In this document: one piece after another, positions 9,491 to 58,141 of the stretch
Position numbering within the stretch: the first letter of the stretch is position 1
Layout of the letters: each line of letters begins with the position of its first letter
Origin: Candidatus Nomurabacteria bacterium
GTDB taxonomy: Bacteria > Patescibacteriota > Minisyncoccia > Phycocordibacterales > UBA9973
Reading direction: 5' to 3'
NCBI GenBank assembly: GCA_023267375.1
Contig: JAHFNJ010000002.1
Location: 23,634 to 87,633 of the forward strand
Length of the DNA stretch: 64,000 bases
The notes under the pieces: generated by a model
Seen by the model: only the letters and a program-made list of their open reading frames with translations
Databases searched by the model: none
Told to the model about the DNA's origin: nothing
Made by a program: the position numbers and the translations under genes

Positions 9491-9575
9491 CGGAGACGGT
9501 GAGATTCGAACTCACGAGGGCTTGCGCCCTGCCTCCTTAGCAAGGAGGTACGTTAGACCACTCCGACACGTCTCC
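9491..9575 (-). tRNA. tRNA-Ser (anticodon GCT), type II with a long variable arm
   Basis: The reverse complement folds into a cloverleaf. The acceptor stem is GGAGACG/CGTCTCC. The anticodon arm is CCTCC-TTGCTAA-GGAGG. The variable arm is 16 nt and the T-arm is GTGAG-TTCGAAT-CTCAC. CCA is not encoded. Confidence 0.7.
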
Positions 9576-9670: not shown

Positions 9671-9755
9671 GGAGGCGTGGATGAGTGGTTTAAATCAACG
9701 GTTTACTAAACCGTCGTTCCGCAAGGAACCGTGAGTTCGAATCTCACCGCCTCCG
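9671..9755 (+). tRNA. Type-II tRNA, Ser-like, with an apparent anticodon ACT
   Basis: The acceptor stem is GGAGGCG/CGCCTCC and the D-stem is GAT/ATC. The anticodon arm is ACGGT-TTACTAA-ACCGT. The variable arm is GTTCC-GCAA-GGAAC and the T-arm is GTGAG-TTCGAAT-CTCAC. The anticodon position is unusual (see findings). Confidence 0.55.
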
Positions 9756-9767
9756 CAAATGAAAATT

Positions 9768-9787: not shown

Positions 9788-9942
9788 CATTTGGGTGGCG
9801 AGCGAAGTGCCTGCGCACTTCGCGAGTGAGATTCGAACGACGGAATGTCATTTTTTCAGCAGAAAAAATGCATGAGTCGGTGGCTAGACCAAAAATTTCT
9901 GACGAGAAATTTTTGAGTCGAAGCCGAACTCCCGCCTCCGCT

Positions 9943-10329: not shown

Positions 10330-11526
10330 TTAATTTATTTTTTTATCCCACAAATCCCAGATCATACCCGCGATATTTTTTGGTTTGCCTTCAAGTGCAA
10401 AATAGTGGAGGTCAATAAAGGGGAGTGTATTCGATTCGATGATGCCCCAGCGTTGCGTGCTCTCCTCTTTTGTTGGGTCAGGAACAATACAATCAAACCC
10501 GACAACGATAATGTTGAGCGTTCGTGCAGCTTGTTCAATGATGGGAATGAAGCTCGGGTGGAGTTCGTCGAGCATTTCTTTCGTGGTGCCTCCATAGAAG
10601 CGGCCCGTACGATGGGTAAGTGGGAGCACTTTGTCTTTTGGTAAAATACTTTCAAGCGAATAGCCAAAGCGGGTGATGTATTCTTTCATTTCGTCTGTCA
10701 CGACAATTGCTTCAATGCGTTCAGAGCGATTTTTGTTTTTCTCATCTATAAGTACGGCAATAGGTTGCACTCCATCACCAGTTATAAACGGTGTACTTGC
10801 ACGGTAAAATCCAGCAAGTTTTCCATCAATTACAGTGGCGCGGCATACGTCACCCAATAGGTGTTCTTCAATAGCGAGACGGGGAGCAATGATATGTCCA
10901 ACCTTAATTGCTGCATGGAGCATTTCTGGTGTTGTGATGTGTGTTGTTGTGTGGCGTCCACGTGACCCAGCTCGTGGTTTTACAATAAGTGTGTTTCCAA
11001 GTTCGTTAAATATACTCACTGCATCTATCTTTGAAAAGAGTGATATTTCTTTAAAACGTGGCACAGGGATATGCGCCGCATGAAGTACTCGTTTCATTAA
11101 AATTTTGTCGTCCCACTTCTCACTATCATCGGAGCGTTTTGGTGGAATAGGGAGACTTTGGAAATAGTGCCATTTTCCTTGTATTTTTGCGCGATAAAAT
11201 TCAAAGGGTTTACCGAGCAAGATACCTTGTTGCATGGGGATGCCACGGCGAAGTGCTTCTTCCCAAATAACTCGAGAACGATGAGTGAGTGTTTTTTCAG
11301 GATCATCTGAGAAGCGAGCGAGTCCAAGAAGAGAAAAGGAAGAAAAAATAGCACCAGGAATCCAGTCGACGAATCGTTCAAGTGGTGCGGGGGCAAGTTT
11401 GGCGAGTGGAAGCATGAAAGGCTCAATAATAGATCCAATGCAGGCTTCAGTAAAAGTGAGTCGGTGACTAATAGCAGCATCACCGCAGTATGTGCAATTA
11501 CTTTGTTTAGGTTTAGGTTCGTGCAT
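10330..11526 (-). CDS. ATP-grasp family enzyme with an N-terminal Cys-cluster domain
   Basis: It carries the ATP-grasp signatures DKILMKRVLHAAHIPVPRF and LIVKPRAGSRGRHTT, plus an N-terminal CTYCGD. Confidence 0.5.
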   Translation of the reverse strand: MHEPKPKQSNCTYCGDAAISHRLTFTEACIGSIIEPFMLPLAKLAPAPLERFVDWIPGAIFSSFSLLGLARFSDDPEKTLTHRSRVIWEEALRRGIPMQQGILLGKPFEFYRAKIQGKWHYFQSLPIPPKRSDDSEKWDDKILMKRVLHAAHIPVPRFKEISLFSKIDAVSIFNELGNTLIVKPRAGSRGRHTTTHITTPEMLHAAIKVGHIIAPRLAIEEHLLGDVCRATVIDGKLAGFYRASTPFITGDGVQPIAVLIDEKNKNRSERIEAIVVTDEMKEYITRFGYSLESILPKDKVLPLTHRTGRFYGGTTKEMLDELHPSFIPIIEQAARTLNIIVVGFDCIVPDPTKEESTQRWGIIESNTLPFIDLHYFALEGKPKNIAGMIWDLWDKKIN

Positions 11527-20591: not shown

Positions 20592-20700
20592 GGAGCGAAC
20601 CTTGCAGATTTCAAAAGTCTTGGAAGCACTGGCGAGTGCGGACAGAGAGAATGTAAAGCTTTACATTCTCGTGCTTTTGAAATCTGCAAGGCGAGCGTAC
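20592..20700 (+). repeat. Structured element copy A, about 110 nt. It has an 18-bp outer stem enclosing two inner hairpins. It may be a small RNA or a terminator-like repeat.
   Basis: The outer arms are ccttgcagatttcaaaag (20600-20617) and cttttgaaatctgcaagg (20674-20691). One inner hairpin is gcac-tggcga-gtgc and the other is gagaatgtaaag/ctttacattctc. The element is preceded by ggagcgaacc. A second copy with covarying stems lies at 62127-62235. Confidence 0.5.
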
Positions 20701-20718
20701 TTTATACACACCCGCGCC

Positions 20719-20749
20719 TTGCGCGATGCTTGGCATGGGGTGGTATAAT
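20719..20749 (+). promoter_or_regulatory. Sigma70-like promoter upstream of the first pilin
   Basis: A -35-like TTGCGC is followed after 19 bp by an extended -10 TGgTATAAT at 20741-20749. A second -10-like gTAAAAT sits 5 nt before the pilin ATG. Confidence 0.35.
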
Positions 20750-20833
20750 GTATGCATTACAAGAATAGGTCGTTTTGGTTTGCGTCACCCTATCGACGCC
20801 AGCCAAAAAATTTACAAATTAGTAAAATTATTT

Positions 20834-21277
20834 ATGGTTAACAAATTTAAAAAAGGTTTTACCCTTATCGAATTGCTCGTTGTTATCGCTATCATCGGTA
20901 TTTTGGCAGCGATCATTATCGCAAACTTGGGTGGTGCTCGTAATGTTGCGAAGGACGGCGCAGTGAAGTCACAGCTTGCGAACATGCGCGCTCAGGCTGA
21001 GTTGTATGCGCAAGGCTATGGTAACGTATATTCTGATGGAGCAGTAAATAGTAGTAGTGACTGTGCTATTGCTGATAGTATGTTTGATTCAACACGAACT
21101 AATAGTGTTACCGCTCTTCTCGAGGGTATTGATGGTTCAGGTGGAGTTGCTACCTGTTTTGCGGGACCATCTGTGTGGGCTGTCTCCTCAACTCTTCCTT
21201 CAGGAGCAAATGCATGGTGTGTTGACTCTGCTGGACAATCAAAAGAGGGTACTGCTACTGCAACTGGTTGTAACTAG
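20834..21277 (+). CDS. Type IV major pilin, paralog 1
   Basis: It has the prepilin leader MVNKFKKG followed by FTLIELLVVIAIIGILAA (class III signal with Glu5). The ORF-track start at 20726 would give an implausible 36-aa leader. Confidence 0.8.
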   Translation: MVNKFKKGFTLIELLVVIAIIGILAAIIIANLGGARNVAKDGAVKSQLANMRAQAELYAQGYGNVYSDGAVNSSSDCAIADSMFDSTRTNSVTALLEGIDGSGGVATCFAGPSVWAVSSTLPSGANAWCVDSAGQSKEGTATATGCN

Positions 21278-37763: not shown

Positions 37764-37932
37764 CCACGAGTACGTTTTTCTCCTTCGACTCAAAATTTGC
37801 CAGTCGCAAATTTTGGTCTAGGCACCGGCTCGAATTTTTCTCTGGTGAGAAAAATATACTCCGCCGTTCGAATCCAAGACAAAAGCGCGTTCAGCGCTTT
37901 TTTCCGGCAGCATTCCTCGCTGAGTTCGTTTG

Positions 37933-38003
37933 CTGCCAGACTTGGATTCGAACCAAGATGACGACTTTCAGAGAGTCGCATCCTACCATTAGATGATCTG
38001 GCA
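37933..38003 (-). tRNA. tRNA-Gln (anticodon CTG)
   Basis: The reverse complement is TGCCAGA-TC-ATCT-AATGGTA-GGAT-G-CGACT-CTCTGAA-AGTCG-TCAT-CTTGG-TTCGAAT-CCAAG-TCTGGCA-G. It has a U1:A72 pair, typical of bacterial tRNA-Gln, and CCA is not encoded. Confidence 0.75.
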
Positions 38004-41508: not shown

Positions 41509-42297
41509 CTATTCTTTATACGGTTTCGCAGTGCTCCATAATCCTTCAAAGAGTGCCGAGATAGTATCGTTGTGCTCCTTTGAGGTGACTAAAATCGCGT
41601 AGCAGTTCTCGTATGAAGAAATGTAGAGTGTTTTATCATCAAAGAGAAAGATGGTCGTTTTAAATTTTCCCTTCATGACGTCTGGGAGCATGCGAATTCT
41701 TGAAAACGTTGCGTAGTATTTTTTAAAATCGGATGGTTTTATTTTTGCTTCCCATAAATTGCGGGTAGTGATATTTCGCTGGCGACGCTCCTCCACATAC
41801 TTTCGGATGAATTCTTCACCGAATCCCCAGAAAAATGTATGTTCGGGTACGATCAGATCAACTTTTTTACTTTTTGCATACATCACATCCATTACGACAT
41901 GTTTTACCGCATCGACTCCTTCAAAAAAAGAGACCATTGGCTTTTCAATCTTTGATGCTGATGATGAAACCAGGCTTGGCAGAAGCTCGCCGATTTGTTC
42001 AGTGAGATTTACCGCTTCATCTTCTTTTTCGCGGGCGATAGCAACCAGGCGTTCAAAAGGGGAAAGGGTAAACGTAAAGTCCGACTGCTTGCCCGATTTT
42101 GAAACCAGCCCTCTCTTCTCAAGCGAGTTCAATGCATAGTAAATAGTCGGCCGTTTCATCTTGGTCGTCTTCATGAGATCGTGCGCAGTTCGAGCACCAG
42201 CCACCATGCGCAAGTAGACGGTGATTTCGGATTCCGTCAGTCCCAATTTTTGCAGTTGTTTCTCTGGTTGATTCATCCGGTTAGTGAGAAATGGCAT
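41509..42297 (-). CDS. TrmB-family transcriptional regulator
   Basis: The N-terminal wHTH reads LQKLGLTESEITVYLRMVAGARTAHDLMKTTKMKRPTIYYALNSLEKRGLV, followed by a C-terminal TrmB-type domain. The true start may be the second ATG at 42276 (see findings). Confidence 0.65.
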   Translation of the reverse strand: MPFLTNRMNQPEKQLQKLGLTESEITVYLRMVAGARTAHDLMKTTKMKRPTIYYALNSLEKRGLVSKSGKQSDFTFTLSPFERLVAIAREKEDEAVNLTEQIGELLPSLVSSSASKIEKPMVSFFEGVDAVKHVVMDVMYAKSKKVDLIVPEHTFFWGFGEEFIRKYVEERRQRNITTRNLWEAKIKPSDFKKYYATFSRIRMLPDVMKGKFKTTIFLFDDKTLYISSYENCYAILVTSKEHNDTISALFEGLWSTAKPYKE

Positions 42298-42513
42298 TAT
42301 TGGTTTTTGCCGTCTTTTATTAAGTTGTAATTAGTAATTATCATTTTGCAATATGTATATCTTCAACCAATGCCTCACTACCGCTCGGCGATGCCATTTT
42401 CTACTACGGGATTCATTTGTCTAATGGCTATTATACACTATTAAACAAAATGTCACAAGGGGGTAGAGTTGAGAAAACGTTATTTCACATTCTAATCCTT
42501 AAATATAAAGCTT

Positions 42514-57906: not shown

Positions 57907-58141
57907 GAGCAATCAAACACCTTCTGTAAGAAGCAAAAAATCACCTTATTCTATAAGGTGATTTTTTGTTGACGTTTTGCGACTTGTGTTTTGTAATGTT
58001 TCATGATATAATTGGGGCACCTTTATGAATCCGGTAGTAGACAATGGCATTGCCGAGTGATAGCGAGGTATTGGTAGAAAATATTTATTTTGCAAATTAT
58101 GAACACTAATTATCATATAAAGAAAACGGCAGAAACCAATA

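Follow-up and report, generated by a model that had tools for sequence, protein, structure and literature searches.

The locus at 20592-20700 raises the question of whether a short sequence that is present twice in the 64-kb window (by which we mean the whole stretch of DNA analyzed) is a selected structure and, if so, whether it operates as RNA or as DNA. The first-pass annotation had placed two copies of ~110 nt with a common architecture at 20592-20700 (copy A) and 62127-62235 (copy B), and we located them there with the same three-helix fold. They are one element occurring twice, both times between genes and 41.5 kb apart, in a window that carries a type IV pilus cluster and housekeeping genes (ligA, gatCA, prfB, ftsEX, and pyrG). 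We conclude that they belong to a family of structured elements that is real, under selection, narrowly distributed, and so far undescribed, and in which the fold is kept by compensatory evolution while the helix sequences change freely. As for function, our tentative reading, to which we assign a probability of about 45%, is that the element could be an independently expressed, protein-binding small RNA of ~105-115 nt read from the plus strand.

Architecture of the two copies

Copies A and B are 83% identical over 118 aligned columns, and both open with GGAGCGAACC and close with GAGCGTA. Each carries a pair of perfect inverted arms, which are 18 nt long and 56 nt apart in copy A (20600-20617/20674-20691) and 17 nt long and 54 nt apart in copy B (62137-62153/62208-62224). 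These are the only long-loop perfect palindromes of the window, the other inverted repeats of which are short-loop, terminator-like hairpins. The parts of both copies are given below; L055 and L056 denote related contigs that carry one further copy each.

Copy A
20592-20601, plus strand: 5′ flank GGAGCGAACC, identical in copies A, B, and L055
G20595-C20596 with 20695-20696, plus strand: helix P0, 2 bp; a G-C pair becomes A-U in L056
20597-20599, plus strand: GAA, one side of a G·A-type internal loop
20600-20618, plus strand: P1 5′ arm CCTTGCAGATTTCAAAAGT (inverted repeat; compensatory changes)
20619-20646, plus strand: arm P2, with junction CUU-G and junction base A20646 (RNAalifold consensus, per-pair counts)
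UUG 20620-20622 with CAG 20643-20645, plus strand: helix P2a (RNAalifold consensus)
20626-20639, plus strand: P2b hairpin GCACU-GGCG-AGUGC, all pairs of which covary, separated from P2a by the internal loop GAA/GGA
20647-20670, plus strand: arm P3, a 10-bp hairpin with loop AGCU (fold and covariation)
20671-20691, plus strand: junction GUG (20671-20673) and P1 3′ arm CTTTTGAAATCTGCAAGG; CGUG is invariant in 4/4 copies
20692-20699, plus strand: 3′ flank CGAGCGTA, in which CGA (20692-20694) is the other side of the loop and G20695-C20696 the 3′ strand of P0

Copy B
62127-62136, plus strand: 5′ flank GGAGCGAACC (alignment with copy A)
62137-62153, plus strand: P1 5′ arm TAGAGCTTTTGAAAAGC, a perfect 17-nt inverted repeat with 62208-62224
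62154-62180, plus strand: arm P2, with CUU-G, P2a (UUGC/GCAG), and internal loop GCA/GA
62162-62173, plus strand: P2b hairpin GACU-GACG-AGUC (fold, RNAalifold consensus)
62181-62205, plus strand: arm P3, 10 bp with one bulged A, one U·G pair, and loop AGCA
62206-62224, plus strand: junction GUG and P1 3′ arm (inverted repeat, consensus)
62225-62234, plus strand: 3′ flank AACTGAGCGTA, ending 2 nt before the stop codon of the pseudouridine synthase gene (62237-62239, minus strand)

Both copies are predicted to fold stably against shuffled controls (copy A, -50.9 kcal/mol, z = -6.1; copy B, -38.8 kcal/mol, z = -3.3). The consensus is a Y-shaped three-way junction in which a closing helix of 16-19 bp (P1), the sequence of which is free to vary, meets a two-part arm (P2) and an arm of 10 bp (P3). 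Within P2, a G-N-A/G-(N)-A internal loop divides P2a from P2b and a GRCR tetraloop forms the cap, while outside P1 the conserved flanks GAGCGAA and GAGCG pair (P0) across another G·A-type loop. RNAalifold, run on the four-copy alignment, contributed the P2a helix (UUG with CAG), a closing pair of P2b which turns the hexaloop into the GRCR tetraloop, and the 2-bp P0, which is separated from P1 by a GAA/YRA loop. Judging by sequence, the internal loops at P0/P1 and P2a/P2b could each form tandem G·A pairs. The invariant bases are concentrated in the flanks, at the junction (CUUG, CA-A, and CGUG), and in the two internal loops. A kink-turn of the box C/D kind was considered and rejected, as both G·A-type loops are, by sequence, symmetric or nearly so (GAA/CGA; GNA/G(N)A) and the required one-sided 3-nt bulge is absent.

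Two details of the initial description need revision. Its complementary outer arms of 16-18 bp hold as perfect arms of 18 and 17 nt, but the loop TGRCGA, which it regarded as conserved, is so within this genome only; in the relatives, a covarying pair closes a GRCR tetraloop at the end of the hairpin. The T-rich sequence which it appended to the element is not part of it. In copy A, this stretch belongs to a DnaA-box-like sequence (TTATACACA) that is found also at an element-free site in a relative, and in copy B it overlaps the stop codon of the convergent pseudouridine synthase gene.

Further copies in related genomes

The proteins flanking copies A and B are unchanged in the MAG GCA_023267615.1 and in ENA and Logan assemblies, and their homologues are annotated as Candidatus Paceibacterota, Pacebacteria, or Minisyncoccia (a lineage of the candidate phyla radiation, CPR). 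Relatives were reached by synteny via PilC, the RluB-like pseudouridine synthase, and the CTP synthase PyrG, yielding ~190 kb of related DNA in total, and a covariance model built from copies A and B was run on the window and on the contigs of the relatives. In the window, this two-copy model returned copies A and B only, even with filters off. The first annotator had proposed a search for additional copies, and two were indeed found in related Paceibacteria metagenome contigs: one at L055:3945-4061 (minus strand, 98.6 bits), in a contig with a PilC 90% identical to that of the window, and another at L056:11280-11396 (plus strand, 76.6 bits), where PilC is 81% identical. Taken together, the four copies from three genomes score 76-139 bits with E-values of 1e-18 to 1e-35. 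The model found no copy in contigs L178, L180, L181, L184, L185, L186, and L187 (~150 kb).

Searches in databases returned nothing comparable. Rfam 15, applied to the whole window at gathering thresholds, reported a LOOT RNA and three tRNAs and nothing at the element; at E up to 10, the element region gave only miRNA-type long-hairpin noise of 12-16 bits, with no family reaching E = 1, and nothing was reported at the elements of L055 and L056 when the related loci were scanned. An exact-pattern scan of species-representative genome contigs gave 29 matches, all GC-rich chance hits lacking the long helix, although this is a weak negative because the pattern required CTGRCGAG, which later proved not to be conserved and was therefore too strict. 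The same type of scan in JGI metagenome contigs gave two matches, which were chance as checked by folding or model, and two pattern scans of viral contigs and one protein scan with PilC yielded chance matches or nothing. BLAST against phage and plasmid collections gave no match to the element, and literature searches did not turn up a description of the motif. As far as could be seen, the family is restricted to one Paceibacteria lineage. The P1 arms were also considered as guides to other loci and rejected, as neither matches elsewhere in the window with three or fewer mismatches.

Compensatory evolution of the fold

Between copies A and B, 10 predicted pairs have changed on both sides and still pair. 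In the four-copy alignment (A, B, L055, and L056; 29 pairs, 114 pair cells), 113 of the cells form standard pairs (99.1%) and 23 of the 29 pairs show compensatory double changes, whereas none of 500 shuffles reached any of the five covariation measures and a slid control, with partners moved by 1-3 columns, lowered pairing to 36-53%. Double-changed pairs are found in every helix (14/16 in P1, 3/3 in P2b, and 6/10 in P3). RNAalifold recovered 38 pairs from the same copies, 24 of them with compensatory changes, including a flank-flank pair which goes from G-C to A-U. Pairing is kept even though paired columns diverge by 32-59%; the P1 arms have just 5-11/16 positions in common between copies, and conservation in the unpaired columns exceeds that in the paired ones only slightly (63% vs 56% identity). 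The covariation of all three helices is a constraint that a plain terminator or palindrome would not need. The original view that the covariation marks a selected RNA or DNA structure, and not a fossil repeat, is thus supported by four copies and 500 shuffles, and the signal became stronger, not weaker, as copies were added to the alignment.

Genomic context and inheritance

All four copies are located between two co-directional genes, 0-80 nt past the upstream stop codon and ahead of the next promoter. Copies A and L056 are in sense orientation between pilC and the pilin gene, whereas copy B is antisense between the pseudouridine synthase gene and a lipoprotein gene, and the L055 copy is antisense, with a Big_7 gene and pilN as its neighbors, and lies on the strand opposite to the syntenic pilus genes. 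That three of the four copies belong to the pilus cluster is largely a sampling effect, from which we draw nothing. In L056, pilC and the element are separated by a canonical terminator, which lies directly upstream of the latter.

Copies A and L056 occupy the same pilC-pilin site, ~45 nt upstream of a conserved extended -10 box, and their P1 arms agree at 5/16 positions with every pair kept; the same site, diverged arms, and intact pairing together are indicative of long-term selection on the structure. The corresponding site of L055, the nearer relative, is without the hairpin and keeps ACC/GCCGAG (the slash marks the joint), which corresponds at 8/9 positions to the joined flanks of A and L056 and is followed by a DnaA-box-like sequence (TTATCCACA) common to all three genomes. 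We read this as ancestral presence with later loss of the palindrome, on the strength of a short match found post hoc. In L185, site B is empty and lacks the adjacent lipoprotein gene as well; in L184 it holds an IS200-like gene with unrelated flanking repeats. No target-site duplications were seen in the flanks outside the conserved 117 nt of the four copies, nor are there near-identical copies among the four. One site appears, from sequence comparison, to have been inherited vertically. Taken together, these findings make an active mobile element less likely and suggest that each copy has been under long-term selection. Among the 40 ORFs of the window compared with Pfam, there is no reverse transcriptase, Y1 transposase, or integron integrase, and the only recombinase is a serine recombinase at 3535-4854.

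The pilC-pilin region has other features of its own. The DnaA-box-like sequence (TTATACACA; TTATCCACA in both relatives) is present with or without the structured element and lies ~30 nt upstream of TGGTATAAT, which is the extended -10 box conserved before the major pilin gene (window 20702-20710 and 20741-20749; L055:11225-11233; L056 about 11390-11398). The pilin gene probably starts at 20835 rather than at the called 20726, and in its 5′ leader the block AAGAATAGGTCGTTT (window 20761-20775) is kept in all three genomes while the surrounding spacer is not, so it may be a leader or regulatory motif. Elsewhere, ~150 nt upstream of the L055 copy and on the same strand (L055:4190-4275, minus), GGAGCGAAGC is followed by two other hairpins; it resembles the 5′ flank of the element, differs from it in architecture, is unscored by the models, and may be due to chance.

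Strand preference

The features that favor one functional strand are the purine skew, the excess of G·U over A·C cells, and the folding of the plus strand. On the plus strand, 76% of the unpaired positions (97/128) are purines compared with 49% of the paired ones, and purine-rich junctions are typical of RNA. Of 152 pair cells, 142 are Watson-Crick, five G·U, and two A·C. Fold energy is better for the plus strand in 3/4 copies. The exception is the L055 copy, the gene-sense (reverse) strand of which folds better (-55.3 vs -51.3 kcal/mol). The reverse strand forms a mirror fold that is nearly as stable, as DNA too, and both DNA strands fold with z = -3.6 to -8.7. Two further points complicate a strand-specific RNA: G·U accounts for only 5/152 cells, which is low for RNA and speaks against that reading, and both C·A cells, readable as U·G on the opposite strand, fall in the two antisense copies. 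Across the four copies, no promoter or terminator is found at a fixed distance; the only candidate is a promoter-like TTGACT-16-GATATT (9/12) on the plus strand, 18 nt upstream of copy B.

Proposed function and alternatives

Under the small-RNA reading, copies A and B would be paralogous genes, or transcribed domains, for one structured non-coding RNA, in which a long closing rod (P0, the G·A-type loop, and a P1 of 16-19 bp) would bear the arms P2 and P3. The purine-rich unpaired bases might serve as the recognition surface for a protein partner, and the rod might protect the RNA ends or offer a double-strand processing site. The RNA would presumably act as an independent unit and not as a regulator of the adjacent gene, because neither the neighbors nor the orientation is conserved; two sense and two antisense copies beside differing genes fit a free-standing gene. 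The position 0-80 nt past a stop codon, between co-directional genes, would also suit an element of transcript ends. Of the three functions that the first-pass annotation had offered, a small RNA is the best supported, and the other two are not supported. A strand-specific terminator or attenuator conflicts with the two antisense copies and with the lack of a U-tract after the closing helix, and a miniature mobile element with the lack of conserved terminal repeats, target duplications, and near-identical copies as well as with the one site of apparently vertical descent.

Several specific candidates were rejected along with these. A riboswitch or attenuator does not fit two copies that are antisense to both neighbors, neighbors that differ, and the placement of copies A and L056 upstream of the pilin extended -10 box; as position and orientation relative to neighboring genes are not conserved, any strand-specific leader is excluded as well. 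Intrinsic termination by P1 is not called on either strand; the one terminator-like call, P3 plus GUGCUUUU in copy A, is not repeated in copy B or L056. A hammerhead ribozyme, whose three-way junction has the successive joiners CUGANGA, GAA, and a single H, is rejected because CUGACGA is found in copy B only (CUGGCGA in A; absent from L055 and L056) and lies inside P2b, not in a joiner, the joiners of the element being CUUG..., CA-A, and GUG, and there is no Rfam match either; twister-sister, hatchet, and pistol ribozymes are rejected solely on the absent Rfam match. A MITE is contradicted by arms that are not conserved, flanks that are not duplicated, and within-genome copies that are only 83% identical. 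As for coding sequence, copy B has a stop codon directly after a ribosome-binding-like GGAG, and the copies differ by compensating 1-nt indels. Attachment sites of a 41.5-kb island are not credible with ligA, gatCA, prfB, ftsEX, and pyrG in the interval. The 162-aa gene beside copy B, considered as a transposase, is lipoprotein-like and has no Pfam match, and a link to the Y1 transposase gene of L184 is not borne out, since the repeats that flank the gene are unrelated to the element.

An unlikely but substantial alternative is that the element works as DNA, where an exposed single strand or a cruciform would form the Y hairpin and be read by an HUH/Y1 transposase, a recombinase, or a primase, much as in REP/REPIN, integron attC sites, or single-strand origins. 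The almost purely Watson-Crick helices (142/152 cells, with five G·T in DNA terms) and the stable folding of both strands would suit such a role, as would a structure kept while its sequence varies, since conserved structure with variable sequence is a hallmark of attC sites. The flanks are direct GAGCG repeats that would be brought together on extrusion of the hairpin, the ACC/GCCGAG of L055 at the pilC-pilin site is what a palindrome lost or gained as a unit would leave, and the purine-rich strand of copies A and B lies on the positive-GC-skew strand, i.e., the lagging-strand template. A Y1 transposase gene is present in the sample from which L055 derives. This gene, however, is flanked by unrelated ACTCTTTAGG repeats, which occur nowhere near the elements; none of the copies has a transposase, integrase, or Rep gene nearby, the core sites of attC are missing, and neither target-site duplications nor near-identical copies are seen. 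The L055 copy lies on the opposite strand relative to the syntenic pilus genes, and the purine-rich unpaired regions are of the kind typical of RNA. If the element did act as DNA, it would join the few examples beyond integrons of a structure conserved without its sequence.

We consider it just as doubtful that the element is an orientation-independent hairpin of transcript ends, which would stop transcription or block 3′ exonucleases in the manner of REP, ERIC, or Correia sequences. Every copy does lie 0-80 nt past a stop codon and before the next promoter, in either orientation, and both strands fold stably; moreover, the two antisense copies contain the two C·A cells, which would become U·G in the complementary strand, and in L055 the gene-sense strand folds better by the energies given above. 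Such a barrier needs P1 only, yet P2b and P3 are compensatorily kept and the junction bases are invariant, with unpaired bases that are strongly strand-asymmetric. There is no U-tract after P1 on either strand, the pilC gene of L056 is already followed by a canonical terminator ahead of the element, and the ordinary terminators of these genomes are short GC-rich hairpins followed by U runs.

Returning to RNA, it is conceivable, albeit improbable, that the element is the RNA part of an undescribed ribonucleoprotein of CPR bacteria, e.g., a re-wired single-unit descendant of TIGR guides, the freely varying closing helix of which would carry specificity, or a self-processing RNA with a catalytic conserved junction. 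Very improbable in our estimation is a solitary divergent relative of the stem-loop guide RNAs of TIGR-Tas systems (tigRNAs) as such. This idea draws on a P1 that is variable except for an inner AAAAG/CUUUU in 3/4 copies, on CUU after the 5′ arm in 3/4 copies, and on UG before the 3′ arm in 4/4; it runs against an interior filled by the covarying P2 and P3, leaving no room for two single-stranded spacers of 8-12 nt, and against single copies 41.5 kb apart instead of an array. Inspection of the sequences revealed no second conserved box C/box D pair, the 40 window ORFs gave no match to a Nop-domain family in Pfam, and a PDB sequence search gave no Tas match for three window ORFs that lack Pfam assignments. 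Scarcely credible is a miniature transposable element in decay, or two palindromes alike by chance, now functionless: although the copies are dispersed, multiple, exclusively intergenic, and patchy among close relatives, neutral decay would have broken pairs that are intact in 113/114 cells despite 32-59% divergence of paired columns, conserved terminal repeats and target duplications are lacking, and the covariance-model E-values are 1e-18 to 1e-35.

CPR bacteria have tiny genomes with scant intergenic DNA, and almost nothing is known of the non-coding RNAs that they make. An element of ~110 nt that is compensatorily kept in several genomes with so little spare DNA is likely to do something useful, and the covariance model (R2) offers a concrete target for mapping metatranscriptomes and for co-occurrence searches for partner proteins.

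Other features of the window and its relatives

The LOOT RNA of the window (RF03000, 78 bits; 3250-3368, minus strand) lies between a bacterial-PH-domain gene and the large serine recombinase gene. The surrounding genes (668-6841) include a T5orf172 gene, a terminase-like gene, and an ADP-ribosyltransferase toxin gene, because of which the region looks like an integrated element. A second LOOT RNA, at L186:19748-19864 (plus strand), is ~3 kb from another serine recombinase. The IS200-like Y1 transposase gene of L184 (2893-3636; 223 aa), a weak match to REP-associated tyrosine transposases, is flanked by inverted copies of ACTCTTTAGG and inserted after the pseudouridine synthase gene, at the point where the window has copy B and the lipoprotein gene and L185 has nothing.

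A 16-nt motif, ATGCCATTNNNNACTA, occurs four times in the window compared with 0.42 expected, as two divergent pairs ~95-110 nt apart, and two of the four sites are the start codons of the annotated ORFs 41509-42297 and 58142-59212.

42282-42297, minus strand: ATGCCATTNNNNACTA (motif count)
42391-42406, plus strand: ATGCCATTNNNNACTA (motif count)
58035-58050, minus strand: ATGCCATTNNNNACTA (motif count)
58142-58157, plus strand: ATGCCATTNNNNACTA (motif count)

A tRNA-Ser(GCU) gene adjoins a divergent tRNA-Ser-like gene with the unusual anticodon ACU (window 9490-9575, minus strand, and 9671-9756, plus strand). Isolated inverted copies of a tRNA T-arm lie beside this pair (9826-9838) and beside tRNA-Gln at 37932-38003 (37866-37878), and may be remnants of integration sites. 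In L178, the PilC of which is 85% identical, pilC precedes a gene (4439-4687) for a 23S-rRNA-intervening-sequence protein (PF05635), at which the contig ends; this family includes accessory proteins of diversity-generating retroelements.

Comparison with known systems

REP/REPIN sequences (associated with RAYT/Y1 transposases), ERIC, and Correia elements are likewise dispersed intergenic hairpins of ~100 nt that follow genes in either orientation, and elements of this type can end or stabilize transcripts. They conserve the sequence of their arms, whereas the present copies have completely different arms and keep nothing but their pairing; accordingly, a test for a REP-like consensus found no common palindrome sequence (5-11/16 P1 arm positions the same, 14/16 pairs double-changed). 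In the window and the related contigs, no RAYT gene is flanked by the element, and the Y1_Tnp gene of L184, a contig of the L055 sample, reaches 45 bits with the model for REP-associated transposases, below its cut-off of 80 bits.

Integron attC sites, at 60-140 nt, also conserve structure over sequence, long sites are branched at the tip, and it is the folded single strand that is recognized. The element differs in lacking the core sites RYYYAAC/GTTRRRY, its ends being GGAGCGAACC and GAGCGTA, and in having flanks that are direct rather than inverted GAGCG repeats, between which two base pairs form. It also comes without integrase or cassette array, its copies lying among housekeeping genes at a distance of 41.5 kb. 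The T-shaped terminal hairpins of parvoviruses carry a GAGC-repeat Rep-binding element and form the termini of linear genomes of eukaryotic viruses; the present element is chromosomal, bacterial, and without a Rep gene, and its GAGCG motifs lie outside the stem, so that the likeness is a lead only. LOOT RNA (RF03000), an orphan structured motif from metagenomic bacteria, is similar in being ~120 nt long, multi-helix, supported by covariation, confined to uncultured lineages, and of a function that is not known, but it has no sequence or model similarity to the element.

TIGR-Tas systems are known from CPR bacteria, including Minisyncoccota (Faure et al. 2025, PMC12045711; Xu et al. 2026 preprint, doi 10.64898/2026.09.09.750476). 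In their stem-loop tigRNAs, the palindromic stem varies between units apart from a few bases beside the box motifs. In PateTasR units, the 5′ arm is followed directly by CUU and the 3′ arm directly preceded by UG, and the loop of CPR units can hold an extra hairpin (doi 10.64898/2026.09.09.750476; PMC12045711). The units form arrays beside or within a tas gene with a Nop domain (PMC12045711; doi 10.64898/2026.09.09.750476), and each tigRNA has two unpaired spacers of 8-12 nt, each between a box C (CNA or CUU) and a box D (YG) (doi 10.64898/2026.09.09.750476). In the element, a second box C is present in copy A only, by chance, and inspection of the alignment showed no CNA-N9-YG interval; no Nop-domain match was found in the 40 window ORFs, for a protein (Tas) which Pfam covers poorly. 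The element thus differs in an interior made of two covarying hairpins, in solitary copies, and in the lack of a detected tas gene in the window, and it is alike in the bacterial group, in a variable palindromic stem with a conserved inner core, in CUU/UG at the inner base, and in the presence of hairpins within the loop, as seen in CPR units. Judged on these points, tigRNAs are the closest architectural parallel that we found, with a likeness to the element that is superficial only.
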